This document shows, in pieces, positions 23,379 through 41,940 of a DNA stretch of 64,000 bases. Every line of letters starts with the position of its first letter. Positions within the stretch are counted from its first letter, which is position 1. The DNA is taken from NCBI GenBank assembly GCA_965247145.1, contig CBDFGH010000010.1, forward strand, positions 38,231-102,230. The letters run 5' to 3'. The position numbers were made by a program, and so were the translations under genes. Under the pieces are notes generated by a model that was not told the origin of the DNA, searched no databases, and saw nothing but the letters and a program-made list of their open reading frames with translations. The DNA is from Rickettsiales bacterium (GTDB taxonomy: Bacteria > Pseudomonadota > Alphaproteobacteria > Rickettsiales > JAIXRX01).

Positions 23379-24692
23379 CTATTTGTAGACGTGCACCTTG
23401 TTGCCATGCAGCGCCAGATCCAGCCCCTCGGCTTCGATCAACGGTGTAACGCGCAGTCCCATGAGCGCTTTTACCAGCTTCAGCAGCAGGAAAGTCGCCA
23501 GCGCCGTATAGGCCACGACCACGGCCACCGCCACGGCTTGCGCCCCGAGCTGCGCCCAATTGCCCTCGATCACGCCGGAAGTGCCGCCGATCTCTTTGCT
23601 GGCGAAGACGCCCGTCAGCAGCGCACCGACGATACCGCCCACACCATGAATGCCGAAAGCGTCCAACGTATCGTCGAAGCCCAGGCGCTCTTTCAGGAAA
23701 GCCACCGCACCGTAGCAGGCCAAAGCCCCGGCCACCCCGATCAGCAGCGAGGATTCGAAGCCGACGAAACCCGCGGCGGGGGTGATGGCGACCAGGCCCG
23801 CCACCGCGCCGGAAATCGCGCCCACCACGCTGGGCTTGCCCTCATGTTTCCATTCCACCAGCACCCAGGTGAGGCCTGCTGCGGCGGCCGACGTATTCGT
23901 CACTAGCATCGCCATGCCCGCCTGCGTGCCCGCGATGAGGGCGGAACCGGCATTGAACCCGAACCAGCCCACCCACAGAAACGCCGCGCCCATCACAGAG
24001 AGCACGAGATTGTTGGAGGTCGATTCGTTCGGCACCCGGCTTTTGCCGAGCACCAAAGCCGCCACCAGCCCGGCGATGCCGGAGGTGACATGCACCACCG
24101 TGCCGCCCGCGAAATCGAGCGCTTTGCCAAGGCCGAACAGGCCTGTGTAACTGTCATCCCCCGTACCGCCGATGAAGCCGCCCGGACCCCACACCCAATG
24201 CGCCACCGGCGTATAGACCACCGCGATCCATAGCGCGGAGAAGACGAGCACGGAGGAGAATTTGATACGATCCGCCACGCTGCCCAGCAGGATGGCCGCC
24301 GTGATGATGGCGAAGGTCATCTGGAAGAAGATGAACACGGTCTCGGGGATGGTGCCCGACAGCGAAGTCGGCTTCACGCCATGCAGCAGAATCTTCGACG
24401 CATCCCCCAGCCAGCGGAATTCATTGGTGCCGGTGAACGCAAACCCATACCCCACGATCGGCCAGACCAAACTCACCACGATCGCCACCGCAAACGTCTG
24501 CATCAACGTCGCCAGCAGATTATCCTTCCGCACCAGCCCGCCATAGAACAAAGCAAGGCCAGGCAGGGACATCATCAGCACAAGAATGCCGGACATCATC
24601 ATCCAAGCCGTGTCGCCCTTATCGAGCGCGGCATCGGCGGCGAGGGCAGGGGTGGCGAGAAAAGCCAGAGGGAGAAAACGAGAGAAACGCAT
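23379..24692 (-). CDS. amtB: Ammonium transporter (Amt family)
   Basis: Signal peptide MRFSRFLPLAFLATPALA, then DKGDTAWMMMSGILVLMMSLPGLALFYGG...DFAGGTVVH...FGIHGVGGIVGALLTG. No glnK adjacent. Confidence 0.92.
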   Translation of the reverse strand: MRFSRFLPLAFLATPALAADAALDKGDTAWMMMSGILVLMMSLPGLALFYGGLVRKDNLLATLMQTFAVAIVVSLVWPIVGYGFAFTGTNEFRWLGDASKILLHGVKPTSLSGTIPETVFIFFQMTFAIITAAILLGSVADRIKFSSVLVFSALWIAVVYTPVAHWVWGPGGFIGGTGDDSYTGLFGLGKALDFAGGTVVHVTSGIAGLVAALVLGKSRVPNESTSNNLVLSVMGAAFLWVGWFGFNAGSALIAGTQAGMAMLVTNTSAAAAGLTWVLVEWKHEGKPSVVGAISGAVAGLVAITPAAGFVGFESSLLIGVAGALACYGAVAFLKERLGFDDTLDAFGIHGVGGIVGALLTGVFASKEIGGTSGVIEGNWAQLGAQAVAVAVVVAYTALATFLLLKLVKALMGLRVTPLIEAEGLDLALHGNKVHVYK

Positions 24693-24873
24693 GAGCTGAC
24701 CGAAGCAAGAATGAATAGCATTTCTAAGCCCAACCCCGCGCGGCGGCAAGCGGCGAGTCATTGGAATTCGCAAAAGAAATTACCCCCAGCGCTGCACAAA
24801 AATTCGGCGACTTGCTCAATGAGCATGCATTCCGTGCAATGACGCTACAAGCTAACTTTGCGCTGATCTGGGA

Positions 24874-25299
24874 CTATTGTCGGCTTGGTTGAAGCTTACT
24901 CATCAAAAGATCGCTCGCCTGTTCATCCAGCGCGAAATCCACATCGATTGTTTTGAACACATGCATGGTCTGCCCATCATGGGTAAGCATTCGGTTCGTG
25001 GCATGGATCGCTGCATAGGGAATGGCGAAACCGCGTTGGCTTTGGCGAATGCCGCGACCGGGCGTCATCAGAAGATGCGTCGGGGTGAAGCGCAGGCCTA
25101 GGCAATGTAGAAAATAATCGCGGCCCAGCATGCCGGTGTAGAAATCGCGCATATATGGCGTGGGGGTCCAGCCATAGGCATATCGCAAATGCTGTTGGAC
25201 CGAGGGAGTGAGAAACGAGGGTTTATTGCTGAACAAAGGATTGGATAAAGCAAGGAATATCAGCCCAGCAAGGATCAGCCACCGCCGCCAATGCCTCAC
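24874..25299 (-). CDS. Hypothetical membrane-anchored protein (141 aa) translationally coupled to virD4
   Basis: Its GTG start overlaps the virD4 TGA (GTGA at 25296-25299). One N-terminal TM (WLILAGLIFLALSNPLF). No family recognised. Confidence 0.5.
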   Translation of the reverse strand: MRHWRRWLILAGLIFLALSNPLFSNKPSFLTPSVQQHLRYAYGWTPTPYMRDFYTGMLGRDYFLHCLGLRFTPTHLLMTPGRGIRQSQRGFAIPYAAIHATNRMLTHDGQTMHVFKTIDVDFALDEQASDLLMSKLQPSRQ

Positions 25300-27116
25300 G
25301 CCGCTGGTTCTTCCGGCGCACCCTGCGCAGTGGATTTCGGTTTCTTGCGGGGGTCGTAGGGTTCCTGCACCGGCACGAAGGTTTTGGGCAGCAGCCGCTT
25401 GGTGAAGAACTTATCCTGGTAATAGAATATCTTCTTCGTTTTCATCGGGGGGTTGGATTCGATGAGGATGATTTGTTCGTCTCTTGGAAGCGTGATGACT
25501 TCCTGGGGAAGTACCAGCGCGCGTTGGACTTCGGAGGTGTTCACCGTACGCGCGCCGGGGTTGAGGTCGAAGAATTTCGGGCGGCTGTGCGATTCGCTCT
25601 TCACCGTCTTGTTCCCGATCATCTGGGAGATCATGTTCGCGGTGTCGATGTTGTTGGCGGCGAAGGTGACGCGGTAATAGGCGTTCGAGAGGAACGAGTT
25701 CATGCCCGCTTCTTCGTAGATGCCTTTCAGCTGCTGGGTATCCTGCGTGATCAGGAACAATTTCACGCGGTATCCGCGGAAATACGCGATGCCCGACTTG
25801 AAGCTTTCCATCTCGCCCAGCGTCGGGAACTCATCCATCAGCATCAGCACGCCGAAAGGTTCGTCCTTGCGCGGCATCCAGCGTGTCATGAAATCGGCGG
25901 CTTGCTGGTAGAAGGTCTTCAGCAGCGGTTCGAGACGCTTCAAGTTGTCCGGCGTCACCCCGCAATAGACCGTGATCTTTTTCTTCTTCATCTCGGAAAA
26001 ATTGAAATCCGAGGTCGCGGTCGCGGTGTCGATCAGCGGGTTGGCCCAGAGCTCCAAGCCGGAGTTCAGCGTCGAGACCACGCCGGAACGTTCCTTGTCC
26101 GCTTTCTGCAGGAAGGAGGCGATGTTCATATAGGAAACCGGGTGGATTTTCTTGCCGATCGTATCCAGCACCACGGCCAGGCTATAGACCACGTCGTCCG
26201 AACGCATGGTGCGCACCACTTCGCCGAAGGAGCACATTTTCTCCGGGTTCGGCGGACGGGAAACGCTGAACAGATAGAGGATCACGCCCATCAGCAGCGA
26301 GCGCGCTTCGTTCTGCCAGAATTCCTGTTCGGGCAGGATCAAATTGCAGATCTTCTGCACGTCATCCACCATCTGCCCCATCTTCTCGCTGATCCAGTCG
26401 AGCGGATTGTAGCAATGGGTGTTCCCGTCCGGGTCGGCGGGATTCCAGACATAGACTTCCTGGCCGATGCTGGCGCGGTAGCCGCTGCAGAGCTCGTAGT
26501 TTTCCAGCTTGATGTCGTGGCAGATCACGCTGTTTTCCCAGAAGAGCAGATTCGGGATCACGAAGCCCACCCCTTTCCCCGAGCCGGTGGGGGCGAAGAG
26601 GAGGACGTGCTGGAAATCGTCTGCGATCAGGTAATCCGCCGCACCTGTGCGGCCCAGCAGCAGGCCCTTCTTGGCGCGCAGTTTCGCCGCCTTGATCTCG
26701 ACCGGGGTTGCCCAATGCGCGTCTCCGTGCAGGGTTTCCTTGCGCTTGAAAGGGCGGAAATCGAGCAGCGGCGCGCGCAGCCAGAAAACCAGAAGGCTGC
26801 TGATGACAAAGGCCCCGACCACTGGACCGATGACGAATTTAAACAGGGGTTTCGCCGCCGGATGGTTGTGCAACGGCCAGAGATAATCCACATACAGCCA
26901 CTTCACCACCGGCCAGAACTGATGCGGATCGAGCGCGCGCTTGGCGTAGACGAGGCCGTAGCCGAAGGCCTTGTCCGCGCCGTAGCTTGGTTCGTACAAT
27001 TTCGCCATGACCAGCCACACCGAAGCGCAGACCCCGAGATACAACGGGATCACCACCAGGATCGCGACGACGATCATGACCATGAAGCGGTTATAGACGG
27101 AATATTTGAAGGCCAT
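25296..27116 (-). CDS. virD4: Type IV secretion coupling protein (VirD4/TraG family)
   Basis: Two N-terminal TMs and Walker A LLFAPTGSGKGVGFVIPNLL, then ...MLMDEFPTLG... and the rest of the TraG/VirD4 layout. Confidence 0.9.
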   Translation of the reverse strand: MAFKYSVYNRFMVMIVVAILVVIPLYLGVCASVWLVMAKLYEPSYGADKAFGYGLVYAKRALDPHQFWPVVKWLYVDYLWPLHNHPAAKPLFKFVIGPVVGAFVISSLLVFWLRAPLLDFRPFKRKETLHGDAHWATPVEIKAAKLRAKKGLLLGRTGAADYLIADDFQHVLLFAPTGSGKGVGFVIPNLLFWENSVICHDIKLENYELCSGYRASIGQEVYVWNPADPDGNTHCYNPLDWISEKMGQMVDDVQKICNLILPEQEFWQNEARSLLMGVILYLFSVSRPPNPEKMCSFGEVVRTMRSDDVVYSLAVVLDTIGKKIHPVSYMNIASFLQKADKERSGVVSTLNSGLELWANPLIDTATATSDFNFSEMKKKKITVYCGVTPDNLKRLEPLLKTFYQQAADFMTRWMPRKDEPFGVLMLMDEFPTLGEMESFKSGIAYFRGYRVKLFLITQDTQQLKGIYEEAGMNSFLSNAYYRVTFAANNIDTANMISQMIGNKTVKSESHSRPKFFDLNPGARTVNTSEVQRALVLPQEVITLPRDEQIILIESNPPMKTKKIFYYQDKFFTKRLLPKTFVPVQEPYDPRKKPKSTAQGAPEEPAA

Positions 27117-27132
27117 GTGGTCGATTCATCTA

Positions 27133-27253
27133 GCCTCCCCCCGCCCGCGGGGGGAGGTTGGAGGGGGGTAGCCACCGCTTGTGCCGTCGAACTTTTCTCG
27201 CACAAGCGGAGAGAACCCCCACCCCTCCCTCCCCCGCGGGCGGGGGAGGGGGT
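27133..27253. repeat. Nested-palindrome intergenic repeat, copy 2 (subtype A)
   Basis: cctccccccgcccgcggggggaggttggaggggggta ... agaacccccacccctccctcccccgcgggcgggggaggggg, with an inner palindrome ccgcttgtgc...gcacaagcgg. It fills the virB11-virD4 gap. Confidence 0.8.
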
Positions 27254-27270
27254 TTTCTATGTGGGCAATC

Positions 27271-28254
27271 CTAGTGCCCGCCCTCTTTAAAGTAAATCTC
27301 GGAAACGAAACGCCGACCGCGATCCCCGCGTTTCAGCTGCACGATGACATGGATGACGTTTTCGACATATTCCTTGATCTGCTCGCGCGTGATGCCCAGC
27401 CCCGCCTGCATCACCATCAGGCACAATTGTTCGATGGCCAAAGCGGGCGTGTCCGCGTGCAACGTGGAGACCGAACCCGGGTGGCCGGTATTGACCGCGC
27501 GCAGGAAGGCGAAGGCTTCCGCGCCGCGCAATTCGCCCACGATGATGCGGTCCGGGCGCAGGCGCAGGCAAGCTTCGATGAGTTGCTGCGTATCCACTTT
27601 GGCGCGGCCCTGGCCACCTTTCGAGGCGAGCAGATGCACTTTGTTGGGGAGATGTTCGAGATTGATCTCGCGCGCATCTTCCGCCGTGATGATGCGCTCG
27701 GAGACCGGGATTTCGCGCAAGGCGGCATTGACGAAGGTGGTTTTCCCCGTGCTGGTGCCGCCGGAGACGATGATGTTTTTCTTGGCATGGATGGCGAGTT
27801 TGAGGAAATCCTTGATCGCGCCCGCATCGAGCAATCCGCGCATCTGCGCATCCACCGGATTGAGTTGCGTGCGGCTGATCGTGCTTTGAAATGCACCCAA
27901 AGCCTCGTAATTATCCAAATTCAACTGCATCACGGTGGGTTTGCGGATGGAGAAAGCGACTTGGCCGTCCGCGCAGGCGGGGGGGAAAACGATCTGCACG
28001 CGGAAGCCGTCCGGCAGCGTGCCCGAAAGCAGGGGCATTTCCTCGCTGATGTTCTGGTCGGTCGATTGGGCGATGAGTTTACCCAGGGTCTTGAGATGCT
28101 GCAGCGTGAGATCGGGCAGTTCCTCGCGCACCATGTCGCCGCGCATTTCCACCCAGGCTTCACCGGGGCGGTTGATTGAAATCTCGCTTACCCCCTCGCG
28201 GTCGAACAAAGCGCGCAGGGGCTGCAGGTAGGTATCAAGCGCGGTGAGCGACAT
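27271..28254 (-). CDS. virB11: Type IV secretion ATPase VirB11
   Basis: Walker A IIVSGGTSTGKTTF, then ...RIITAEDAREI...RPDRIIVGELRG.EA..FLRAVNTGHPGS.STLHA. are classic VirB11 motifs. Confidence 0.92.
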   Translation of the reverse strand: MSLTALDTYLQPLRALFDREGVSEISINRPGEAWVEMRGDMVREELPDLTLQHLKTLGKLIAQSTDQNISEEMPLLSGTLPDGFRVQIVFPPACADGQVAFSIRKPTVMQLNLDNYEALGAFQSTISRTQLNPVDAQMRGLLDAGAIKDFLKLAIHAKKNIIVSGGTSTGKTTFVNAALREIPVSERIITAEDAREINLEHLPNKVHLLASKGGQGRAKVDTQQLIEACLRLRPDRIIVGELRGAEAFAFLRAVNTGHPGSVSTLHADTPALAIEQLCLMVMQAGLGITREQIKEYVENVIHVIVQLKRGDRGRRFVSEIYFKEGGH

Positions 28255-29565
28255 CTATTGCAGCACCGTCGGGCCGCTCAACACGTTTTGCGGGAAGCTG
28301 AGATCGTGATTGACGAAGATGTTGATGTGGGTGCCCTGGTCGAGCATGATGGTAGGCCGCACATCGATGAAGCGTTTGACCACGCTCTGCGTCGTATCCC
28401 CCAGATCGGTGACCGAACGCTGCAACGCGATCGCACCCGCTGAACCGGTGGTGGTGCTGCCCAGGCCGGAATTGCTGGTGCTGACATCGCCGCCGATCGC
28501 CGCATCCCCCGCCACTGCGGTGCCCACCGTGAGCAGGCTGGTGAGAATGGCCGAGGAATAGATCTCGAGATATTTGTTGTCCACCATGCCTTCCACGCCG
28601 CCCCGGCCGATCTGGTCCAGGCCGGGGGAATTGATGGCGATCACCACCCCGTCTGGCCGCATGACGCGCGACCAGATGATGTAGACGCGTTTTTGCCCGC
28701 GGAATAGATCGGTATTGTATTGCCCGATAACACGCGATCCTTTGGGAATGAGTACGCCCCGTCCCGATTCGGCATAGACATCGCGGCTGACGATGGCGCG
28801 GATGGGCGCGGGAAGATCGGTATTGATGGCGCTTTCGAGAATGACGTCGACGATCTTGCCTTGGGCGATGAGCGCCTCGAGATTGCTCAACCGTTCTGCC
28901 GTAACGACCGAAACTTTCTGTCCCTCGCCGTTGCGGGAGAATTGCAGATTGCTGTCTTTCGCATTGCCCGTTGGATCGCTTGAGATTGTGCTGGATTTCC
29001 CACCGAGCAGACTGGAAGCCCCGCCCCCGCCGCCACTCACGGTCATGCCTGAACGCCGGCGGCGCTGGCGCATTTCTTCCGCAGACTGACGGGCGCGGAT
29101 TTCTTCCTGTGGATCGGCGCTCGGGGTATTGGCGGTAACCGGTGCGCCGGGCAGGCCGGGCACGCTTTCCTGAATCGGCAGCGGCGGTGGGGGCAGGGAA
29201 ACCGCATCGGTCTGCACCGGCGCGGGGTCAGGCGGGGGTGCCGGCGCCGGCAATGGGGCCGAGGTATCGACGGGAGCGGCCACCGGCACGCTTTCGTTTT
29301 GTCGGCGGGCGGCTTCCATCTCTTCCTGCGTGGGGGTTTTGCTTTGACCGAAAAGCACAAAAAGCAACACGCCCACTAAGCCGATTCCCACGATCAGCAT
29401 CACCACCACGCGGCTTTGGGTCGCAGCCACCGCCGGGCGGGTCTGCGTTAGAATCGGCTCCGCTTCCTCCGGTGTTTCCAGAAAATCTTCCTGGCTGGGC
29501 CGGTATCCTTCGGTGCCGTATTCGCCGCTCTCGGGTGCGTCGGGGGGATTGGTGTCCTGGCTCAT
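28255..29565 (-). CDS. virB10: Type IV secretion protein VirB10 (TrbI family)
   Basis: Cytoplasmic N-terminus, one TM (VVVMLIVGIGLVGVLLFVLF), a Pro-rich region and a conserved C-terminal barrel domain (...LPAPIRAIVSRDVY...IPKGSRVIGQY...RVYIIWSRVMRPDGVVI...). Confidence 0.9.
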   Translation of the reverse strand: MSQDTNPPDAPESGEYGTEGYRPSQEDFLETPEEAEPILTQTRPAVAATQSRVVVMLIVGIGLVGVLLFVLFGQSKTPTQEEMEAARRQNESVPVAAPVDTSAPLPAPAPPPDPAPVQTDAVSLPPPPLPIQESVPGLPGAPVTANTPSADPQEEIRARQSAEEMRQRRRRSGMTVSGGGGGASSLLGGKSSTISSDPTGNAKDSNLQFSRNGEGQKVSVVTAERLSNLEALIAQGKIVDVILESAINTDLPAPIRAIVSRDVYAESGRGVLIPKGSRVIGQYNTDLFRGQKRVYIIWSRVMRPDGVVIAINSPGLDQIGRGGVEGMVDNKYLEIYSSAILTSLLTVGTAVAGDAAIGGDVSTSNSGLGSTTTGSAGAIALQRSVTDLGDTTQSVVKRFIDVRPTIMLDQGTHINIFVNHDLSFPQNVLSGPTVLQ

Positions 29566-29625
29566 GGGCCTACCTGCTTGCTGATGCCGTCTTGCGCATG
29601 CCGCGCATGGCTCGGGATGCGTGGA

Positions 29626-30825
29626 TTATTTGTTTTGGCGCGTTTCGTTGTAGATGGTGGCTTTCTGCTCGCCGCTGCGCAGCACGAATTTCGCACCGAC
29701 ACCGCCCGCCACCCAATATTTATCTTCTCGGTTCAGCGGCACCGCGATTTCTTTGCCTTCACGCGTGACGCGGAAGAGTTTGGGCGCGCTGCTGGCATTC
29801 AGGAACTGGAAGTAGGTGCGCTGACCGTCGTCGAACATCGCGTAGGGCAATATCTGTCCGCTGCCCTCATAGGTGTAATTGAAATTGAGCGCCGCGCTGT
29901 TGGCCGTTGGCGGCAGCGGGGAAGGTGCCGCCGCAATGTTGTTCGCCGGAATATTGCTGGCGACGGATGCGGCAGGCAATGGCGTATCGTACGGTCCGGC
30001 CCCGTAGCGGTTTTTCGTGGCGGTGGTCGGCGGCGGGCTTTGCATGGCAGTGCTGCGCATGGCTGCGGGCAGAGACGGCTTGGGCTGCGGGGCGGGCAGA
30101 GAGTGGCTCTGTGCGCTATCATGCGGTGCGGCCAGTGGTACGGCGCTGACCGGCATGGGCATGGCCGGTGCCGGTTCCACCGCCGGGGCAGGCGTGTCGG
30201 ACGCCATGCTTCCGGCGTTGTAATGCATCGTGGCCGGTGCCGCATTGCCGGTGGGATAGGCCACGGCGGCGGCGCCATAGGCGTTGCCGCCCATGGGATA
30301 GGCCTGGGGCGCCGGTGCGGCGGCAGGCACCATGGCACCCGGGGTGCGGGCATTTTTCGGATCGTCTGGATAGTAGAAGCGGATGACGTAGGCCAGTTCT
30401 TCCTGCGGCAAATCCGCCGGATTGGTGGCACGCAGGTCGAATTGATACGCGCGTTCGTTGGTGATCACGGTCATGTTGGTATGCAGATCGTCCGCCACCG
30501 CGCGGATGAACAAACGCCGTCCGGCGGGCACCACCTGCCAGCCCGCGCGATCTCCGATGGAAACGGTTTCGATGCGTTCCTTCGGCCCGAATTCCACGTT
30601 TGATTGAAAGCCGTAATAGGTCAACAGGCTATAGACGTCGTTCTCATTGAAGACGAATGTCTTGACCCGGCTGTCGGAAGCGACCGGCGGAGCGGGATTG
30701 GCGGCCTGTGCGGGCAGCATGCCTCCCAGCATGTAAAACAGGGCCGTGCCGCAGGCCATAGACATCAGTGCCGTCCGGCGGCGGGGCGGCAAAATCGGGG
30801 CTGGGTGAATCGCTGCGTGCTGCAT
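29626..30825 (-). CDS. virB9: Type IV secretion protein VirB9 with an expanded Pro/Ala-rich linker
   Basis: Signal peptide. N-domain (...RVKTFVFNENDVYSLLTYYGFQSNVEF...NMTVITNERAYQFDL...) and C-domain (...NFNYTYEGSG...DDGQRTYFQF...) are separated by ~155 low-complexity residues. The ATG at 30825 overlaps the virB8 stop (TGATG). Confidence 0.85.
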   Translation of the reverse strand: MQHAAIHPAPILPPRRRTALMSMACGTALFYMLGGMLPAQAANPAPPVASDSRVKTFVFNENDVYSLLTYYGFQSNVEFGPKERIETVSIGDRAGWQVVPAGRRLFIRAVADDLHTNMTVITNERAYQFDLRATNPADLPQEELAYVIRFYYPDDPKNARTPGAMVPAAAPAPQAYPMGGNAYGAAAVAYPTGNAAPATMHYNAGSMASDTPAPAVEPAPAMPMPVSAVPLAAPHDSAQSHSLPAPQPKPSLPAAMRSTAMQSPPPTTATKNRYGAGPYDTPLPAASVASNIPANNIAAAPSPLPPTANSAALNFNYTYEGSGQILPYAMFDDGQRTYFQFLNASSAPKLFRVTREGKEIAVPLNREDKYWVAGGVGAKFVLRSGEQKATIYNETRQNK

Positions 30826-31508
30826 CACTGGGACTCTTTAATTAGACTGTAATCGGAAACATAGAAGCCCACCGGATTGAAGAAAGCTTCTTCGAATTGT
30901 AAATCGACCTTGCGGAATTCATACTTGACCGTGGCCATGAAATGTTCGGTGGTCTGCACTTCGCCCACCCGGTTGCCGGTTTCCACGTAGAAATGAATCT
31001 GCGCCGTGCCGGGGCTGGGAAAATACATCGACTTGATCTTCACGTCGCGTTTGCCGGCCTGCCCCAGACGACCTGCGGCAGTATTGGGATCCAGCGGATT
31101 GGCCTCGCGGATGTATTTGCGAAACACATCCGGGTTGGACATCAGGCGGATGAGGTTCGCATTATAGGAAAAATCGCCGATGTTGATGGTTTGCCAGGCG
31201 CGCAGATATTGCACCAGGAAGTAATTGGTCACCGCTTTGTCTTTTTCGAACAGACCGCTATCGAGCGGTGCCACGGCTTGCACCAGGCCGGCACGTTTGT
31301 CGATTTCGATCGCGAAAGGTTCGACGGCAACCAAAGGAATGCGGGTATAAATAAGGAAAATCGTGCCCAGCAAGCCAAGCAGAGACACCATGGCGGCGAC
31401 GAAGAGGATATTGCGCTGAACGATGGCCGTCTGGTAGCGGTCGCTATACCAGTTCTTGGTTTCGGTCTGCGCTTTGTCCTCGGGTTTCTTGAAATGCTCA
31501 AAGGCCAT
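30825..31508 (-). CDS. virB8: Type IV secretion protein VirB8
   Basis: NWYSDRYQTAIVQRN + TM + periplasmic NTF2-like domain layout typical of VirB8. Confidence 0.85.
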   Translation of the reverse strand: MAFEHFKKPEDKAQTETKNWYSDRYQTAIVQRNILFVAAMVSLLGLLGTIFLIYTRIPLVAVEPFAIEIDKRAGLVQAVAPLDSGLFEKDKAVTNYFLVQYLRAWQTINIGDFSYNANLIRLMSNPDVFRKYIREANPLDPNTAAGRLGQAGKRDVKIKSMYFPSPGTAQIHFYVETGNRVGEVQTTEHFMATVKYEFRKVDLQFEEAFFNPVGFYVSDYSLIKESQ

Positions 31509-31511
31509 GGT

Positions 31512-31625
31512 TCATCCAGCCGCTTGCGGCCCCGTTAGCGCGGCTGCGCAGGGCATAGTTTTTTGATACTGCAGCCATGGCGCGAATGCAAGATGCATGC
31601 GGGCCAAGATGGGGAAAGGCCACAT
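31512..31625 (-). CDS. Candidate 37-codon ORF exactly filling the virB6-virB8 gap (VirB7 position)
   Basis: MWPFPILARMHLAFAPWLQYQKTMPCAAALTGPQAAG*. Its ATG overlaps the virB6 stop (TGATG) and its TGA lies 3 nt before the virB8 ATG. No lipobox, and coding status is unproven. Confidence 0.25.
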   Translation of the reverse strand: MWPFPILARMHLAFAPWLQYQKTMPCAAALTGPQAAG

Positions 31626-33454
31626 CAAATTTCATCGCTGTTCCCCTCCATCCGCTCGCGGGCCATATTGTACTCGTAGTTCCGTTCCGCAATTTCTTGC
31701 TCGAGTTCTTCTTTCTTCTTCCAGAACTCTTTGTGCTCTTCGCGCAATTTCTTCAATGTTTCTTCGTCGGCTTCCGAGAGTTTTTCTTGTTCCTGCAGTC
31801 GTATGGCCTGTTGATACCAGACGCCCTCCTTATTTTCGGCGCTTTTCAGTTCGAGCATGGCTTTGTTGTATTCGTCGCGGCGGGCATACATGTCGGGCAG
31901 CGTGGAGAATATCTCGTCCGGGCTCATGTCGGATTTGGAGAACTCGGCCCCCTGCTGAAACGCCATCGCAAAACGGTTGGGTATCGCGCGGACGATGCTG
32001 TCGTTCTTCAGGTAATCGGGATCGTATTGCCGAATGCTGTCTTTGATACTTTGCTGGTAGCCGGGATCGTAGCCGTAACGGAAGCCCGCGCTGAAATTGC
32101 GCGCCACTTTGTCGAAATTGCCGAAACCGAAACCGCCGCGCGCATCCGAATTCGCGCCGCCACCGCCGAGATTCATCGCATAGCCGGAACCGCCCAGGGT
32201 CTGGGCAATGGAGGGAAGCTGTTCGAGGATTTCATTGACCCCCCATATCACCAGCAACACGGATAAACCGTTATACAGAATGTATTTGAAGAATTCGAAA
32301 TGCTTCAGCGATGCCAGATACGTCGTGCCTTTGGCATTGGGCGGGCATTCGAATCCATGGAAGGGGGCCATGCCGGGAACGAAATTGAACTTGCCGCCGA
32401 TGCAGGGCGTACAAAACTCCACGACCTCGCCGGACTTGCCGAAGCTGATGCCGAAAGAGCGCAGATCCGTGATTTCGCTGGGCGAAATGCGCATCGCCTG
32501 CAGCAACCCTTTGAACATATCCCAGAAATCGAACAAATGGTAGGTGATCATGATAACCGCGAAGACGATGATCATCTGCAATGTATAACTGATGATGGCT
32601 TGCAGCCAGCGGTCGAAGAAACTGCGCGTATTGCGGAACATGGCAAAGCCGATGAACATGGGGCTGGCCGCCATCAGCAGCGCCACCGCACCCAGTGCGA
32701 CCATGAAGCCGAGTGCGGCGCGGATCAGCATGAAAATCAAAGTCAGCATCATCGCGAATACCGGCCCGCCCACGATCGGGAAAACCAGGAAGATGAAGAA
32801 CAGGAAGATGATGGCGGTGCCCGCGCAGGTCGGCGCGTCGGAGGGCAGATTGTCCTGCGGGTCGATAATCGGATTGGTGGAGAAAAGCGCGGCGAATTTC
32901 TTGAACTGCCCGTCCTGCCCGCTGAACGGATTGTCGGCGGCGGAATAGAACCAACTGATCGTGTCCTGACTGACCGAAAGGAAAAAGCCGTAAATCAGCT
33001 TCATCGCAATCTCGGCATTCAGCGCCAGCATCAGCACGAGGGAAATCTTGATAATCAGGATCATCGATTCCCGGGCGCTGAGCGAGGTCAACCCGAATAG
33101 CACGGACGCCCCGTAGATCAAAACCGCCAGCACCCCTGCGGCCAACAAGGGCGGTTCGACCAACTCGCGCACCGCGCAATAGCCCAAGGCCAGCGAATCG
33201 AACAAAGCGGCTTCCCAGGCCAGCAACACATGCTTGAAAGGCTCGTCGATCCCGGCATTGTCGGGATCGATCGTTTCATTGATCATATGCGGGTTGACGG
33301 GATTTCCGGAGGCGGTGCTGCTTGGGCAGCTGAAACTCTGATTCACGGAGATATAATCGAATCCACTGCCCGCCGCCTGTGCCTGCGTGCTTGAAAACAC
33401 CATGCCACCCAAAGAGACAATCAGAAGCAGCCAGAAAAAAAGGCGTCCATGCAC
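31625..33454 (-). CDS. virB6: Type IV secretion protein VirB6 (TrbL/VirB6 family) with a long C-terminal extension
   Basis: Signal-like N-terminus, a polytopic TrbL-type core, then a ~190-aa soluble tail ending in a charged coiled-coil-like region (...EETLKKLREEHKEFWKKKEELEQEIAERNYE...). Start uncertain: GTG at 33454 (after the virB4 stop) versus in-frame starts up to 33598 that overlap virB4. Confidence 0.8.
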   Translation of the reverse strand: MHGRLFFWLLLIVSLGGMVFSSTQAQAAGSGFDYISVNQSFSCPSSTASGNPVNPHMINETIDPDNAGIDEPFKHVLLAWEAALFDSLALGYCAVRELVEPPLLAAGVLAVLIYGASVLFGLTSLSARESMILIIKISLVLMLALNAEIAMKLIYGFFLSVSQDTISWFYSAADNPFSGQDGQFKKFAALFSTNPIIDPQDNLPSDAPTCAGTAIIFLFFIFLVFPIVGGPVFAMMLTLIFMLIRAALGFMVALGAVALLMAASPMFIGFAMFRNTRSFFDRWLQAIISYTLQMIIVFAVIMITYHLFDFWDMFKGLLQAMRISPSEITDLRSFGISFGKSGEVVEFCTPCIGGKFNFVPGMAPFHGFECPPNAKGTTYLASLKHFEFFKYILYNGLSVLLVIWGVNEILEQLPSIAQTLGGSGYAMNLGGGGANSDARGGFGFGNFDKVARNFSAGFRYGYDPGYQQSIKDSIRQYDPDYLKNDSIVRAIPNRFAMAFQQGAEFSKSDMSPDEIFSTLPDMYARRDEYNKAMLELKSAENKEGVWYQQAIRLQEQEKLSEADEETLKKLREEHKEFWKKKEELEQEIAERNYEYNMARERMEGNSDEI

Positions 33455-33491
33455 AAGGCCCTGCAGGCCGGTGCGTCCGTACGGGGCCGCA

Positions 33492-35903
33492 CTAGGCAAC
33501 GCCGAGATAGGCGGGTAGCCAATCATGCAGCGCCTCCCCTTTGCTGGCGCGCAATTGATCGAATTTCCGCAAGCGGTCCGCATCCGCCGAAAGCACATTC
33601 ATCAAGGGCTCGAGCCCTTGCAGATTCAATTCGGCGACGATGGATTCCGGCCCGCGCTTGAGCAAAAAATGCCGCCGACGCGATTCCATGGCCTGAACAT
33701 AGACCAGCTCCTGCTCGTTCAGCCCGAAAATATCGATCAGGCTACGGTCGGCGGTGGCGTCCGGCAGGAAGATCTGGGTGGCGATATGCTCCATGATCGT
33801 CGGGTTGAGCTCGCTCTTGGCCGCTTCCTCATGACGTTCCGTGGAAAGCAGCGCCATTGCGTTCATGCCGCGCAGGCGCTCGAACCACCCGCCCAGGCGG
33901 GTGGTAAAAATCGGATTGTCGAGCATGCGCCAAGCTTCATCCAGCACTACGATCGCGGGATAGCCATCGAGCTCGTTCATGATGCGGTGCAACAGGTAAG
34001 CCACAACCGGCGCGCGCGTGCGCGGCGTCTTGTTCAATTCGCTCAAGTTGAATCCTGCGATGCCTCCGCTGAGATCGAGCGCATCTTCGGCATGGTCGAA
34101 AATAGCGGCGAAAGCACCGGTGGAATGCCATTCGGCGAGGTAGATGCCCAGGCGTTCTTCACGCAGGCGCACGAAATCGGCCAGCACTTTCAATCGCCGC
34201 TCTTCGCGCGGCAGGGTGAAGAGATAATCGATCCCCCCCGCCAGATGCGGCCAGAACTGCTCGCGGTAGCGTGCGATGCCCGGTGCTGCATCCTGCAAAA
34301 GCGATTCGAGCCAGACGAGAAGGAAAGTACGGTTGCCAGGCGTGTCATCCATCAATAGCGGGTTCATTGCAGGCCACAAGGGCCGGCTCAGATGATCGGT
34401 CTCCATCACCCGGTGATATTCGCCGCCAATGGCGCGCAGGAAAATCTCCGCCGAGCGGTCATGGTCGAAATAAAACAGCTTCGGCTGGTATTTCCGTGCT
34501 TCCGAAAGCAGGAAATTCATGAGTACCGACTTACCCGCGCCGGGTGGGCCGACCAGAATGGTGTGCCCGTTGGTGCCGATGTGGAAGTTGAAGAAATAGG
34601 GCGTATGGGCGGCGGTGTAGAACAGCGAAAGCGCCGGACCCCAATGGGTGTTGTTGGCGCGGCCCGAAGGCAGGTTGTTCAGCAGCGCGAAGCCGCCGAT
34701 GCGCGCGGCGTCGATCGGGCGCAGGCGGCGCAGGAAGGGGAAATTGCCAGGCAATTGTGCCCAATAGCTCTCCTCCAGCATCATATCTTCGCGCAGCAGC
34801 GTGATGCCCAGCGCATTGAATTCCCGGGTGCAGAGCAGCAGATTTTTCTCCAAGCCCTCCAGCGAATCATTCATCACGAAAATGGTGATCTGGTGTTCGC
34901 CGAAATCGGTGGCCTGCCCACGGTTGCTGGCCATCACGGCACTCAACCCGCTGCTTTCGGAGAGATCGGTATTGCCGCTCATTTTGAAGTAATCGTATTG
35001 CTCTTCGAAATGCTTCAACGCTTCTTTATGATGGATGAAATCGAAGCTCTGGCTGACCACGAACTCCACCGGCATCTGCAACAGGCGGCCCAGAGCGTTG
35101 AGCGAGATATTGTGAAATTCCTTGACGGTGAGCAATGCCCCGTACCGCGTTTTTCCCACGCGGTAATTGCGCACCTCCATCACGTTGCTGCCGAAGGCGA
35201 TGTCCATCGCCTGGGAAAGCGTGTCGTCCAGCCCCCGCTCGGGCAGAGGAATATCCTCATCCGTCAGCGTGATGAGCTTGCTTAGGAATTTCAACGGTTC
35301 GGAATAGATCACGCCGCCATCTTCGATCAGTCCCAGCCGGTGCGCGCCGTACTCGTTCAGCACGCGCATCATCTCGATCGTCGCATCCTGCAACTTGGCG
35401 TGGGCTTCTTCGGTGTAGGCATCGCGCGCATGCGCATCCGCCCAGGGCACCAGGGCACGCAGGGTGCTGGCCATGTCTTTCAATCGTGCACGCTGACCCT
35501 GATGCAGCACGGTGATGTAGATTTCGTTCAGATATTGGTTGTCCCAGCCATTATGCTCGACCCAGGCGGCATTCAGCACGCGGGAGAAATCTTCCGGATA
35601 TTCACCTTCGGGGCGGATGTCGGCGGCGCGGCGCACGGTGTGGATGCAGACCGCGAAATCGGTGGAATTCACCGACGCGCGGATGGCGTCGCGGATGGTC
35701 TGGCGCAAATCGCGGATGTCGTTGGTCAATGCTTCGAAGGCGAAGCCGGTGATCTTGATGATCTGCAGCAGCTCGCCATTTTTGGTAAGCAGGGTATGCG
35801 GGTCGATATGACAGGAATAAGGGACGAAATCTTGCTCGATCACCTCATGGTCGATCAGCTTCCCCTCGCTCTTTTTCAGCCATTTCAGGGGAAGGGGAGG
35901 CAT
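33492..35903 (-). CDS. virB4: Type IV secretion ATPase VirB4
   Basis: 803 aa. N-terminal ...FVPYSCHIDPHTLLTKNGELLQIIKITG..., Walker A LVGPPGAGKSVLMNFLL and Walker B region ...IVVLDEAW. There is no N-terminal TM or VirB3-like fusion. Confidence 0.93.
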   Translation of the reverse strand: MPPLPLKWLKKSEGKLIDHEVIEQDFVPYSCHIDPHTLLTKNGELLQIIKITGFAFEALTNDIRDLRQTIRDAIRASVNSTDFAVCIHTVRRAADIRPEGEYPEDFSRVLNAAWVEHNGWDNQYLNEIYITVLHQGQRARLKDMASTLRALVPWADAHARDAYTEEAHAKLQDATIEMMRVLNEYGAHRLGLIEDGGVIYSEPLKFLSKLITLTDEDIPLPERGLDDTLSQAMDIAFGSNVMEVRNYRVGKTRYGALLTVKEFHNISLNALGRLLQMPVEFVVSQSFDFIHHKEALKHFEEQYDYFKMSGNTDLSESSGLSAVMASNRGQATDFGEHQITIFVMNDSLEGLEKNLLLCTREFNALGITLLREDMMLEESYWAQLPGNFPFLRRLRPIDAARIGGFALLNNLPSGRANNTHWGPALSLFYTAAHTPYFFNFHIGTNGHTILVGPPGAGKSVLMNFLLSEARKYQPKLFYFDHDRSAEIFLRAIGGEYHRVMETDHLSRPLWPAMNPLLMDDTPGNRTFLLVWLESLLQDAAPGIARYREQFWPHLAGGIDYLFTLPREERRLKVLADFVRLREERLGIYLAEWHSTGAFAAIFDHAEDALDLSGGIAGFNLSELNKTPRTRAPVVAYLLHRIMNELDGYPAIVVLDEAWRMLDNPIFTTRLGGWFERLRGMNAMALLSTERHEEAAKSELNPTIMEHIATQIFLPDATADRSLIDIFGLNEQELVYVQAMESRRRHFLLKRGPESIVAELNLQGLEPLMNVLSADADRLRKFDQLRASKGEALHDWLPAYLGVA

Positions 35904-35947
35904 GGTTTCTATCCGTCAAGGAACTTGGGAAAGTCGGAAACATCAAT

Positions 35948-35973
35948 CCCCCGCCAGCCGAAGCTGACGGGGG
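35948..35973 (-). other. Stem-loop between virB2 and virB4
   Basis: cccccgccagc-cgaa-gctgacggggg: ~10 bp with a tetraloop in the 85-nt spacer. There is no downstream U-tract on the transcribed strand, so it is not a canonical terminator. Confidence 0.5.
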
Positions 35974-35988
35974 GAAGATTATCAGTGT

Positions 35989-36363
35989 TTAGCTGCAGAA
36001 GTTGCCGCCGGTGGTGCTGTTGTTGCCAACACCATTGCCGACCATATTGACGATCGAAGCCGCACCGAAGACCAGCGCAACGCCGATGGCAACGATCAAT
36101 GCCATACCCCAGGAGACCTTACCCATCAGAGCGCCGATGCCGACGATGATGATGGCGATCGAAGCGAGTACGCGGCCGGTGGTGCCGGTGAAGGCGTTGT
36201 AGATGTTGCACAGCGCCTGATCGATGCCGCTGCGGGTTTGTGTTTGCGCCAGCGCCAGATCCGGCGCCAGATTGTAAGCCAGCAGTACGCCGGTCATCAC
36301 GACCAGGCACCAGGTGAAATCCATCGTGCGCTGGGCCGAAGCCGAGGGAGTCATAATGTTCAT
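35989..36363 (-). CDS. virB2: VirB2/TrbC-type T4SS pilin
   Basis: 124 aa. Long leader, then two hydrophobic helices (GRVLASIAIIIVGIGALMGKVSWGMALIVAIGVALVFGAASIV) typical of VirB2. First gene of the array, below an AT-rich 300-nt promoter region. Confidence 0.75.
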   Translation of the reverse strand: MNIMTPSASAQRTMDFTWCLVVMTGVLLAYNLAPDLALAQTQTRSGIDQALCNIYNAFTGTTGRVLASIAIIIVGIGALMGKVSWGMALIVAIGVALVFGAASIVNMVGNGVGNNSTTGGNFCS

Positions 36364-36667
36364 GGGAGTGTCCTTTTCAGTGTTTCAGTGTGTGGTTGTT
36401 TTTAAAAATGGTCACCAGTGGTTACGTTTCCTCCAACGCCAGTACCTTTCCTTATAGCACCGAAGCATGACAGTTTTTTGACAATGGCCATAAAAAAGCG
36501 ACCATAAGCCGGAAAAACCACCCTTTGGTGTAAAGACTGACAAGGACGCGCAAACGTCATCCTATCTGCAGCCTATGTTGCGGAGGATTGCTTAAGGTTC
36601 GGTTAAACGCTTGGCCTTTTGCCCCGACTGTGGCATGGAACACACAGCATGACCCCAGGAGAAAAAC

Positions 36668-37138
36668 ATGACCCACCAACCCGAAACCGCGCTGCAGAAA
36701 CTCGGCATCACCCTTCCCACCCCGGCGGCGCCCGTGGCGAATTACGTGGGGTATGTGCAGACCGGGAACCTCGTGGTGGTTTCCGGCCAATTGCCGCTGG
36801 AAGATGGCAAGCTGGCGGTGGCGGGCCATGTGGGCGAGGGCATCGGGCTGGAAGAGGCGCAGCGCGCCGCCCGCCTGTGCGCGATCAATGTGCTGGCGCA
36901 GGTGAAAGCCGCCTGCGGTGGCGATCTATCGCGCGTGAAACGCTGCGTGCGCCTGGGCATCTTCGTCAATTCCACCAAGACCTTTACCGACCAGCCCAAG
37001 GTGGCCAACGGCGCTTCCGACCTCATCGTGGCGGTGCTGGGGGATGTGGTGGGCAAGCATGCCCGCGCCGCCGTGGGCGTGAACATTCTGCCGCTGGGTG
37101 CGGCGGTCGAAGTCGAAGGCATGTTCGAGATCGCGTAG
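36668..37138 (+). CDS. ridA: RidA/YjgF-family protein
   Basis: ...GNLVVVSGQLP...AR.ALINVLA......V.VGIFVNS...F.....V.NGASDL......G.HARAAVGV..LPLGAAVEVE..F are family-typical. Confidence 0.85.
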   Translation: MTHQPETALQKLGITLPTPAAPVANYVGYVQTGNLVVVSGQLPLEDGKLAVAGHVGEGIGLEEAQRAARLCAINVLAQVKAACGGDLSRVKRCVRLGIFVNSTKTFTDQPKVANGASDLIVAVLGDVVGKHARAAVGVNILPLGAAVEVEGMFEIA

Positions 37139-37259: not shown

Positions 37260-38537
37260 TCACGCCGCGTAATACATCTCTTTATCCAGCGTATTTTCGC
37301 TCGCATCCACCACCAGCGTAATCGCCGCGTCGCCGGTGATGTTGATGGTGGTGCGCAGCATGTCCAGCACGCGGTCGATGCCCATGATGACACCGATGGT
37401 CTCGATCGGCAGGCCGACGCTGGAGAGCACCATGCCCATGAAGATCAGCGAGCCGCTGGGAATGCCCGCCGCGCCGATGCTCGCCACCGTGCAGGTGAGA
37501 ATGAGTGTGAAATACTGGCTCCAATCCAGCGTAATCCCGAAGGCCTGGGCGGTGAACATGGCACAGATGCCGAGATAGATCGCCGTGCCGTCCATATTGA
37601 TCGAGGCCCCCAGCGGCAGCACGAAATTGGCGCTGCCCTTGGAGACGCCCAGGCGTTCCTGCAGCACGCGCATGGCGGTGGTCAGGGTCGCTTTGCTGGA
37701 GGAGGTGGCGAAAGCCAGCGCCTGGGCTTCCACCATCTTGCGGTAGAAAGGCAGCGGCGAAACGCGGCCGACGATGAGGATGAGGAGGCCGAACAGCAGA
37801 TATTGGAACAAGCAGGCCGCCACCACCGCCACCACCAAGGTGCCGAGGGATTTGAGAATGTCGAATCCTTGCGTGGCCACCAACCAGGAGATGAAGCCGA
37901 AGACGCCGAAAGGCGAAAGCTTCACGATCAGCTCGATCATCTTGAAGGTGAGCGTCGCCCCTTCGTGGCACAGGCGCAGCAGGTTGGGCACCTTGCCGCG
38001 CACGAGATTGAGCGTGACGCCGGTGAAGATGGAGAAAACCACCACCTGCAGAATGTTGCCCTCCGCCATCGCGCCGATGGCGTTGGTGGGGATGAAGCTC
38101 ATCAGCAATTCGCCGAAACCGGTGGGGGCTTTCGCCGCCGGGGCATTGCCCGCGAATTGCGCGAGGTCGATGGAAAGACCGACGCCGGGATGGAACAGAT
38201 GCCCCGCCACGAGACCGATCACCACCGCGAAGGCCGCCGTGGTAAGGAAAGCAGCCACGGCCTTGCCCGCGATGCGCGAGAAATTCTGGTCGTCCCCCAG
38301 ATTGGTGATGCCGTAGACCAGCGCGAAGAACACCAGCGGGATCACCACCATCTTGATGAGGTCGATAAAGATGATGCCGAGCGGCTTGAACATCGCCGCA
38401 TCCTCGGCGCTCATCACACCGCTGGCGATTTCATGTTTGAACAGCAACCCGACCGCGATCCCGAGAATCAGCGCGACGACGACCTGCTGCCATAAGGGGA
38501 AGCGGGGAGTGACGGGAGAAGATTCCGAAGCGTCCAT
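37260..38537 (-). CDS. Dicarboxylate/amino acid:cation symporter (DAACS, GltP/DctA-like)
   Basis: 425 aa with family motifs ...SSSKATLTTAM..., ...LPLGASINMDGTAIY..., ...IGAAGIPSGSL..., ...DRVLDMLRTTINITGD... Confidence 0.88.
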   Translation of the reverse strand: MDASESSPVTPRFPLWQQVVVALILGIAVGLLFKHEIASGVMSAEDAAMFKPLGIIFIDLIKMVVIPLVFFALVYGITNLGDDQNFSRIAGKAVAAFLTTAAFAVVIGLVAGHLFHPGVGLSIDLAQFAGNAPAAKAPTGFGELLMSFIPTNAIGAMAEGNILQVVVFSIFTGVTLNLVRGKVPNLLRLCHEGATLTFKMIELIVKLSPFGVFGFISWLVATQGFDILKSLGTLVVAVVAACLFQYLLFGLLILIVGRVSPLPFYRKMVEAQALAFATSSSKATLTTAMRVLQERLGVSKGSANFVLPLGASINMDGTAIYLGICAMFTAQAFGITLDWSQYFTLILTCTVASIGAAGIPSGSLIFMGMVLSSVGLPIETIGVIMGIDRVLDMLRTTINITGDAAITLVVDASENTLDKEMYYAA

Positions 38538-41834: not shown

Positions 41835-41911
41835 ATCGGTCTCCTCCGCCGCGAGTGTGGCACGCCACGGCGCGCAGTCAACTTTTTTGCCGCCCGCACT
41901 GTATGGCAGAC

Positions 41912-41940
41912 AAAAAAAGACCCGCCGCAAGGCGGGCCTT
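41912..41940 (-). terminator. Rho-independent terminator after the small secreted-protein gene
   Basis: Minus strand: ggcccgcc-ttgc-ggcgggtc followed by TTTTTTT. Confidence 0.8.

Follow-up and report, generated by a model that had tools for sequence, protein, structure and literature searches.

What is a type IV secretion system (T4SS) doing among housekeeping genes when several of its usual parts are missing and no relaxase accompanies it? The question is raised by a gene cluster at positions 24874-36363 of a 64,000-nucleotide stretch (the window) of the Rickettsiales bacterium assembly GCA_965247145.1 (contig CBDFGH010000010.1, positions 38,231 to 102,230). An earlier note, made from the sequence alone, had described the cluster as a reduced VirB/VirD4 apparatus that does not match rvh, the T4SS of the Rickettsiales. 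We conclude, at a probability of about 0.78, that it is the main island ("island B") of an rvh-type P-type T4SS that is fixed in the chromosome of an uncultured alphaproteobacterium and split between sites, and that it most likely serves VirD4-dependent delivery of protein effectors, not DNA transfer. This kind of secretion system (rvh) is already known; the operon layout, an intact VirB4 of the RvhB4-II type (VirB4-II), and a candidate Pho-box promoter bear on how rvh evolved and is regulated.

Gene content and ancestry of the operon

The cluster comprises nine open reading frames (ORFs), all head-to-tail on the minus strand. Pfam and NCBIfam assign eight of them to T4SS components (virB2, virB4, a virB6-like gene, virB8, virB9, virB10, virB11, and virD4; Table 1), which confirms the colinear array reported in the earlier note; the ninth is orf141. 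The reported couplings can also be read in the sequence: a TGATG overlap at the virB8/virB9 junction (CAGTGATGCAG), no gap between virB10 and virB11 (TAGATG), a GTGA overlap of orf141 with the virD4 stop codon (GCGTGAGG), and a gap of 85 nt between virB2 and virB4 (35904-35988). Non-coding gaps on the coding strand measure only 60, 85, 116, and 154 nt. The virB6 start is most likely the ATG at 33526, which would give a 35-nt overlap with virB4 like that in relatives.

VirB2 is 45-77% identical to the product of the gene at the same position in four related loci (L081, L082, L086, and L087). VirB4 retains intact Walker A (GPPGAGKS) and Walker B (DEAW) motifs, and VirD4 has two N-terminal transmembrane (TM) segments and a Walker A motif. 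The hydropathy profile of VirB6 starts with a signal or TM segment and continues with a TrbL core of several TM segments; a hydrophilic C-terminal extension of ∼200 aa, predicted to form a coiled coil, follows. The Agrobacterium VirB6 has ∼295 aa, compared with 633 aa in the window. In VirB9, a long Pro/Ala-rich linker separates N- and C-terminal CagX domains, and the relatives' proteins have 341-367 aa.

VirD4 and VirB11 carry the clearest mark of ancestry. VirD4 scored 950 bits against NF010472/PRK13897 (cutoff 728) and VirB11 543 bits against NF010475/PRK13900 (cutoff 389), and both scored far lower on Agrobacterium-type models. We take the PRK13897-13900 models to be derived from Rickettsia. 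On NF010473/PRK13898 (cutoff 1050), VirB4 of the window reached 586 bits and the B4-II proteins of Rickettsiales-labelled genomes 575-607, compared with 1212 and 1246 bits for VirB4-I proteins encoded next to VirB3. Homologue searches pointed to the same group. Among 5.8 billion proteins, VirB4 had only seven close relatives (54-88% identical), followed by hundreds of matches at 38-48%; the few of these with names are all metagenome-assembled genomes (MAGs) called "Rickettsiales bacterium" or "Alphaproteobacteria bacterium". The best 80 VirB4 loci in GTDB species genomes are all from MAGs, mostly labelled Rickettsiales or Alphaproteobacteria, with a top identity of 55%. Across 72,556 plasmids, the best VirB4 was 33.5% and the best VirD4 38% identical. 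When the window proteins were searched with tblastn against the fetched loci, the colinear order B2-B4-B6-B8-B9-B10-B11-D4 was found in at least 10 distant MAGs, with VirB11 64-77% and VirD4 67-77% identical.

A neighbor-joining (NJ) tree of 88 VirB4 sequences, rooted on two plasmid-borne VirB4s (Agrobacterium and Sphingomonas), splits into a VirB3-linked clade and a second clade, which a 56-taxon bootstrap analysis supports at 98% and 100%, respectively. The second contains the window protein, the proteins of all window-type operons, and solitary VirB4s of Rickettsiaceae- or Rickettsiales-labelled MAGs; VirB4 of the Athabascaceae MAG UBA6187 (L023) belongs to the same paralog clade. We read the two clades as the RvhB4-I/RvhB4-II duplication known in Rickettsiales (PMC2653234, PMC9352585, PMC11077975). 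Throughout the fetched loci, VirB3 occurred only directly upstream of the other VirB4 class, which is ∼35% identical to the window VirB4 and is often followed by several VirB6 genes; it was never found in window-type operons. The VirB4 phylogeny, which the earlier note had proposed as a check, thus puts the window in the RvhB4-II clade, and the VirB4 tree and the VirD4 and VirB11 models make the locus a phylogenetic member of rvh. That note's claim of a mismatch with rvh is overturned by the two equivalog assignments, the 100% clade, and the MAG-only homologues; all of the evidence assigns the locus to the rvh lineage.

Three further features of the VirB4 family emerged from these comparisons. 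At residues ∼685-691 of the window protein (LLSTERH), all RvhB4-II sequences have A/S-T-E; the corresponding motif of RvhB4-I and of the plasmid-borne VirB4s is A-T-Q-S. In lower-GC MAG loci, several B4-II copies have a degenerate Walker A or B motif; most operon-encoded copies are intact. The most basal member of the VirB3-linked clade lies in a MAG labelled Elusimicrobia (L078, 9696-16563), where VirB3-VirB4 is followed by VirB8-VirB9-VirB10 in one unsplit operon that may resemble the ancestor of the VirB3-bearing island described below.

Missing components and a second island in relatives

The absence of VirB1, VirB3, VirB5, and VirB7 from the locus, as listed in the earlier note, held up in our searches. 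The gaps between the genes are too short, so VirB1, VirB3, and VirB5 cannot hide inside the cluster. A hidden Markov model (HMM) built from 11 rvh-type VirB3 sequences (positive control, 9e-49) gave no match at E≤10 in six frames of the whole window, a check that had also been proposed. A lipobox scan for VirB7 found no ORF on the cluster's coding strand. Pfam detected no SLT-domain protein (VirB1) among the scanned window ORFs, and no VirB5 family was present in these ORFs or in the gene calls for the relatives' two islands. Four places where VirB7 or VirB3 might have been overlooked were rejected. A 64-aa ORF (31498-31692) and, in L081, a 44-aa ORF between virB6 and virB8 lack both conservation and a lipobox; two ORFs upstream of virB2 (36402-36560 and 36557-36829) have no TM segment and no VirB3 signal. 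Fusion of VirB3 to VirB4 was discarded because residue 6 of the 803-aa VirB4 aligns to position 4 of the PRK13898 model.

Mobility functions were sought in the same way. No relaxase, integrase, or Rep/Par family was found among the Pfam-scanned window ORFs, so these lack the cognate relaxase and the integrase or replication functions expected of conjugative systems of mating-pair formation type T (MPF-T) or of integrative and conjugative elements (ICEs). The 64 kb contain no tRNA or tmRNA, and Rfam at gathering thresholds gave zero matches in the window. The earlier statement that relaxase, integrase, rep/par, and tRNA genes are missing stands for the locus and for the scanned parts of the window.

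The VirB3 question has a likely answer in close relatives. Compared with the window, L081 has a VirB4 73% and an RpoB 90% identical and shares the context rpoC...response regulator–histidine kinase–MscS–SDF–ridA / T4SS / amt. A search with a VirB4-I sequence (returning P0166) showed that the 2.3 Mb contig of L081 also carries a VirB3-VirB4-I-three TrbL/VirB6 gene island. Its VirB3 matches PF05101 and passes NF010474. The island is flanked by relA/spoT, pdxJ, and acpS and by carD and sdhBA, and the two islands lie at ∼0.52 and ∼2.25 Mb of the contig. A second close relative, from the JGI and SRA samples that also contain L082 and L083, shows the same VirB3-VirB4-I-3×VirB6 island with identical flanks, acpS/DUF192 on one side and carD on the other in both loci (L088 and L089); the VirB6 proteins of this "island A" measure 580/795/489 aa and 578/755/519 aa in the two relatives. 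Both island types also occur in four distant MAGs (L002/L076, L003/L070, L021/L061, and L027/L077). Because the relatives carry VirB3 at the second island, the "missing" VirB3 of the window is most likely encoded outside it. A VirB4-I protein (P0143) from a 234,684-bp contig is 84% and 80% identical to VirB4-I of the two relatives and branches outside both, as the window does for VirB4-II. It may be the second VirB4 of the window genome. The window alone holds only a B4-II-type VirB4 and one extended VirB6. The description of the apparatus as "reduced" is not supported, since VirB3, VirB4-I, and three VirB6 proteins are encoded at a distant island in two close relatives.

This arrangement can be set against that of Rickettsia, where rvh is scattered over five islets (PMC2653234): A, virB3-virB4a-virB6a-e; B, virB2; C, virB9a-virB8a-virB7-virB8b-virB9b-virB10-virB11-virD4; D, virB1; and E, virB4b. 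Given these contents, the window operon equals islets B and E, one virB6, and a nonduplicated islet C, fused; the relatives' second island resembles islet A. Common to both are a P-type system with VirD4, without VirB5, and without a relaxase; two VirB4 paralogs, VirB3 beside VirB4-I, and several extended VirB6 proteins (in the relatives' island A); the order B8-B9-B10-B11-D4; and the splitting of the genes over separate chromosomal islands. The cutoffs of the PRK13897-13900 equivalogs are exceeded by VirD4 and VirB11 of the window and by VirB4-I and VirB3 of the relatives. Systems of the rvh type characteristically have no VirB5 (PMC2653234, PMC11077975), and no VirB5 analogue was found here, where the operon strand has no unassigned coding space. 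Separate chromosomal islets with vertical inheritance are likewise seen, in the relatives' two islands and in neighbours kept across deep divergence.

The differences are also clear. Islets B, E, and C are separate in Rickettsia but form a single operon here. Rickettsia has duplicated B8/B9 genes and B7, in contrast to a single virB8 and virB9 with no virB7 between; the operons of the window, L081, L082, and L086 all have one virB8 and one virB9. Should the genome really hold no further VirB8 and VirB9 copies, the system would represent an rvh variant lacking both duplications. The Walker motifs of VirB4-II are canonical, unlike those of its counterpart in Rickettsia rvh, and the genome is ∼60% GC and rich in housekeeping genes, not reduced and AT-rich. 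A VirB7 lipoprotein and a VirB1 transglycosylase were not found in the scanned window, and their genes may lie elsewhere; in Rickettsia, both long escaped annotation, and VirB1 occupies a separate islet (PMC2653234).

Chromosomal setting and candidate regulatory elements

The chromosomal, housekeeping context that the earlier note described is supported by conserved synteny: the operon lies between ridA and amt in the nearest relatives (VirB4 72-88% identical). Parts of this context persist in MAGs with 41-58% identical proteins, where ridA is upstream of virB2 (L006, L008, L009, L020, and L071). Among the distant loci, amt follows virD4 in L001, thiG and aroQ are downstream in L008, and a CoA-transferase pair is nearby in L006, L008, L020, L041, and L071. 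The chromosomal site is old, with ridA, amt, thiG, aroQ, and the CoA-transferase pair recurring as neighbours in distant MAGs whose VirB4 is just 41-55% identical. Because the ridA/T4SS/amt context is kept in relatives, and partly in far more distant MAGs, the cluster is not a mobile element. GC content at third codon positions (GC3) is 0.68-0.82 in the T4SS genes vs. 0.78-0.85 in the flanking genes shown. Identity to the nearest relative (L086) falls from VirB11 (95%) through VirD4 (90%), VirB4 (88%), and VirB9 (62%) to VirB6 (54%), the fastest-evolving component; VirB11 is 86-95% identical in L081, L082, and L086. We regard this gradient from VirB11 to VirB6 as a normal purifying-selection pattern.

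The flanking genes named in the earlier note, amt on one side and ridA with a symporter on the other, were confirmed by NCBIfam and by the relatives' annotation (Table 1). On one side of the window, Pfam recognised an ABC exporter (MsbA-like by our reading), kdtA, lpxK, purN/purM, ppk, ppx, aat, aroQ, thiG, and PAP2; on the other, a two-component pair, an L10-L1-L11-nusG block, CoA-transferases, and bipA. NCBIfam and homology to relatives' annotated genes added MscS and rpoBC, and the remaining Pfam-scanned ORFs belong to housekeeping families or have no match. At ∼60% GC and with many biosynthetic genes, the window is unlike classical Rickettsiales. After the 90% match in the 2.3 Mb-contig relative, RpoB is 76-82% identical to many MAG proteins; no relative in culture was found, and the named matches are mostly "Rickettsiales bacterium" or "Alphaproteobacteria bacterium". 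High GC and biosynthetic genes fit environmental basal Rickettsiales lineages, and the housekeeping content looks like that of a free-living organism.

Table 1. Coordinates of the T4SS genes, their flanks, and candidate regulatory features in the window
Feature	Position	Strand	Description
virB2	35989-36363	-	124 aa, pilin; TrbC/VirB2, PF04956, 5e-19
virB4	33492-35903	-	803 aa, RvhB4-II paralog type; CagE_TrbE_VirB 4e-29; TIGR00929 3e-173
virB6-like	ORF 31625-33598, probable gene 31625-33526	-	633 aa; TrbL/VirB6, PF04610, 1e-14
virB8	30825-31508	-	227 aa; PF04335, 3e-38
virB9	ORF 29626-30828, gene 29626-30825	-	~399 aa; CagX/VirB9, PF03524, 3e-50, in two stretches
virB10	28255-29565	-	436 aa; TrbI/VirB10, PF03743, 2e-48
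virB11	27271-28254	-	327 aa, ATPase, 3e-163; NF010475/PRK13900 equivalog
virD4	25296-27116	-	606 aa, coupling protein, 7e-286; NF010472/PRK13897 equivalog
orf141	24874-25299	-	no family
amt	23379-24773		flank of cluster; NCBIfam and relatives' annotated genes
ridA	36668-37138		flank of cluster; NCBIfam and relatives' annotated genes
SDF/DctA-type symporter	37260-38537		flank of cluster; NCBIfam and relatives' annotated genes
Candidate operon promoter	36451-36484	-	Pho-box-like repeat and -10-like element
GC-rich hairpin	35948-35973	-	directly after virB2; 11-bp stem, z = -3.0
Two GC-rich palindromes	27225-27252, ~27135-27170		in the 154-nt virB11-virD4 spacer

The last ORF of the array, orf141, lies outside the conserved system. 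It matches no family even at E≤1 and has no counterpart in any relative, including L086 with its 90% identical VirD4. Its GC3 of 0.60 is atypical of the T4SS genes. The virD4-amt spacer is variable, and in L086, it holds unrelated sequence with a 98-aa TM ORF on the other strand. We set aside a role for orf141 as a conserved accessory protein or effector, given its absence from every relative and its atypical GC3; it is a strain-specific ORF of doubtful status.

A few other genes of the region deserve mention. A gene of the DMP19-like (DNA-mimic protein) family lies just downstream of rpoC (42361-42819; PF14300, 2e-8). Four ORFs have no Pfam family: 62123-63490 (455 aa), 56496-57275 (259 aa), 59416-60132 (238 aa), and 54956-55750 (264 aa), the last with a low GC3 of 0.60. 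Between the SDF symporter gene and ridA, L081 encodes a membrane protein of the TraX family (F-pilin acetylase-like; 7951-8745). It stands beside the T4SS in L081 only and is absent at that position in the window.

We also searched the operon for control elements. Alignment of the ridA-virB2 spacer of five relatives revealed two conserved blocks. One contains a direct repeat that resembles a Pho box (TTGTCAAAAAACTGTCAT, 36467-36484); a -10-like TATAAG (36451-36456) follows at a distance of exactly 10 nt. The TTGTCAAAAAACTGTCAT block agrees with the definition of the PHO box as two 7-nt CTGTCAT-type direct repeats 4 nt apart (PMC4415409). In 3.03 Mb of fetched sequence, TGTCA-N6-TGTCA had 19 exact matches. 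Of these, 17 directly precede virB2 or virB4-II in the coding orientation, in the window, its relatives, and distant MAGs (L011, L013, L014, L017, L021, L033, L041, and L071). A repeat of this kind also lies upstream of virB2/virB4 in L081-L083, L086, and L087. With up to one mismatch, it occurred in 13 of 70 clade-II upstream regions vs. a background of 0.03 per kb. The sites often form 11-bp-phased arrays, each followed by a TGnTAnnnT-like -10 element. In the usual Pho promoter, the box replaces the -35 element, and the spacing to the -10 element here matches this geometry. A sigma-70 consensus scan returned no coding-strand promoter upstream of virB2; the Pho-box architecture came from the comparative alignment.

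The motif suggests that this rvh-type operon is under PhoB (phosphate-starvation) control, for which our literature search found no precedent report in any rvh-type T4SS. The neighbouring two-component pair (39965-41930) was considered as PhoBR and rejected as generic OmpR/PmrA/QseB-like, below the PhoB cutoff. Its OmpR-family regulator (41022-41930) is no PhoB orthologue, so a bona fide PhoB would be encoded elsewhere. Close by, the spacer contains a conserved palindrome, CTGTG-N10-CACAG (36628-36647), 20-40 nt upstream of ridA, and an adjacent block, GCAAAAGGCCAAG..TTTAACC, conserved in all five relatives; these are possibly an operator or promoter for ridA or for the divergent pair.

Two structured elements lie within the operon. 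The GC-rich hairpin directly after virB2 recurs at the same place in L081 (∼9934-9968), L082 (∼9933-9967), L086 (∼1946-1975), and L087 (∼1875-1915), with z from -3.6 to -5.5. Across these four loci and the window, the structure is kept although the stem sequences are unrelated, and in three of the five, a U-run follows. Such an element could act as an attenuator, a terminator, or an mRNA-stabilising stem-loop; probably it serves inside the operon to attenuate or stabilise the transcript and so sets the ratio of pilin to machinery. In the virB11-virD4 spacer, two palindromes have the form CCTCCCCC(C)G-N4-CGGGGG(G)AGG, and a third copy lies between ppk and ppx (15784-15805). The spacer measures 154 nt in the window vs. 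38-55 nt in relatives, which lack the palindromes. They look like an intergenic element family resembling repetitive extragenic palindromes (REP-like) that inserted into this spacer.

Competing explanations and implications

Could the operon work by itself? The earlier note had in effect proposed a self-contained, minimised T4SS in which VirB2/4/6/8/9/10/11/D4 suffice without VirB3, VirB5, VirB7, and VirB1. The operon does encode every core, ATPase, and pilin component; both Walker motifs of its VirB4 are intact, and virB4 is cotranscribed with the channel genes, with VirB3 and VirB4-I elsewhere in relatives, and no window-type locus has VirB3. However, both close relatives that could be checked, and the four distant MAGs, also carry the VirB3-VirB4-I-VirB6 island. 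Both VirB4 paralogs predate the split of these lineages and have been retained side by side ever since, an argument that they act together. In structural work on R388, VirB3 is integral to the inner-membrane complex, where it partners VirB4. We therefore consider a minimised machine unlikely. It is very unlikely that the locus is instead decaying or silent, a leftover that no longer functions. REP-like palindromes seem to have inserted into the virB11-virD4 spacer, and a hairpin with a weak U-tract follows virB2; yet all eight ORFs are intact, their motifs are conserved, relatives show strong conservation throughout, and the promoter block is conserved as well.

Transfer of DNA is harder still to reconcile with the locus. 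VirD4 belongs to the T4SS-DNA_transf/TraG family, which also serves conjugation, and the plasmid homologues are mostly on conjugative plasmids, as would be expected if the cluster were an ICE remnant or a mating-pair apparatus serving a relaxase in trans. Against this stand the empty window scans for relaxase, integrase, Rep/Par, and tRNA, a chromosomal position and neighbours kept across deep divergence, a composition ameliorated to the host genome, and the low identity of even the best plasmid VirB4 and VirD4; we give a conjugative or mobilising role very little credence. Least credible of all is a competence system for the uptake or release of DNA, of the kind represented by ComB or the gonococcal genetic island (GGI). 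VirB10 has a weak ComB10 match in NCBIfam, and Gillespie et al. (2009) noted similarities of rvh to ComB7/ComB9 and thought DNA uptake worth considering (PMC2653234). In the window, though, VirD4 and VirB11 occur and are conserved better than any other part, and no other genes expected of a DNA-secretion island, such as a relaxase, were found. ComB lacks both VirD4 and VirB11.

Agrobacterium VirB/VirD4 and MPF-T systems have homologous VirB2, B4, B6, B8-B11, and D4 in the general P-type order, but their VirB4 is 30-33% and their VirD4 ≤38% identical. They have VirB1, B3, B5, and B7 in the operon, usually come with a relaxase, and are plasmid-borne; in the MPF-T-type loci L084 and L085, VirB3 adjoins VirB4. 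The Bordetella Ptl and Helicobacter ComB systems share a reduced or atypical P-type component set, but Ptl has no VirD4, and ComB has neither VirD4 nor VirB11. Here, both proteins are present and highly conserved, and the earlier note was right to exclude a Ptl type, given the 950 bits of VirD4 on NF010472. The Xanthomonadales X-T4SS is chromosomal, relaxase-less, and VirD4-dependent like the window system, and its toxin delivery into rivals is a model for basal rvh. It is of another lineage and gene order, with VirB1, B3, B5, a large VirB7, and XVIPCD effectors; Pfam found none of these (large VirB7 with N0 domain, VirB1/B3/B5, XVIPCD) in the cluster or window. A functional analogy to X-T4SS is possible.

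Several points weigh against a split rvh system. The second island lies beyond the 64 kb window, and that this genome has it is an extrapolation from its relatives. With one virB8, one virB9, and no virB7 in the operon, some of the rvh hallmarks are not demonstrated. The VirB4 tree is NJ and not maximum likelihood, and taxonomic placement rests solely on MAG labels. The best solved relatives of VirB8 (11 matches) are the VirB8 chains 4lso, 4mei, and 4kz1, presumably Bartonella proteins, and we recognised no chain as rickettsial among the 11. The window revealed no candidate for an effector or immunity gene, and no expression data were found.

The nearest known counterparts are basal Rickettsiales with rvh that are putatively free-living, the Mitibacteraceae and Athabascaceae (PMC9352585, PMC11077975). 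For these non-host-dependent carriers, killing of competing bacteria or defence against protists has been hypothesised (PMC9352585, PMC11077975). The window shares with them an environmental MAG lineage, higher GC, biosynthetic genes, rvh genes with (going by its relatives) the VirB4 duplication, the lack of known eukaryote-targeting effectors, and the same proposed role; its lineage is distinct, the best VirB4 among GTDB species representatives being 55% identical. Effector delivery in place of plasmid transfer, as the earlier note suggested, is the sensible reading, with no relaxase found nearby and a fixed context that is not a mobile element; the effector function itself we infer.

As island B of a split rvh system, the operon would provide the VirB2 pilin, an RvhB4-II-type ATPase, one extended VirB6, the VirB8-VirB9-VirB10 channel, VirB11, and VirD4. 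By analogy with the two close relatives, a second island elsewhere would supply VirB3, an RvhB4-I-type ATPase, and three more VirB6 proteins, and both islands together would build one envelope-spanning machine. In place of VirB5, several extended VirB6 proteins would form or cap the stalk. VirD4 would recruit protein substrates for injection into contacted cells, with no DNA transferred; the proposed targets are competing bacteria or protists, as for basal Rickettsiales. Transcription would start at the PhoB-type promoter upstream of virB2 in response to phosphate limitation, and the hairpin after virB2 may hold pilin expression above that of the downstream genes.

A bolder version, which we regard as doubtful, keeps the ancestral two-module layout but makes island B autonomous: a phosphate-starvation-induced, PhoB-controlled, contact-dependent weapon or nutrient-scavenging device with island A as an accessory or regulatory inner-membrane module. 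If true, phosphate starvation would be the first environmental cue for an rvh system, and RvhB4-II, regarded as degenerate in Rickettsia, would originally have been the operon's working ATPase.

Among Rickettsiales pathogens, the rvh T4SS is the hallmark apparatus for manipulating the host; its origin and its role before host dependence are still debated. Read as island B of a split rvh system, the locus adds a high-GC lineage in which virB2, virB4-II, virB6, and virB8-D4, scattered in Rickettsia, are still one operon at an ancient site. With the VirB3/VirB4-I/VirB6 module at a second fixed site in relatives, it helps to retrace the formation of the rvh "archipelago". Through the conserved Pho-box-like promoter, it becomes testable when rvh systems of non-host-associated bacteria are switched on.

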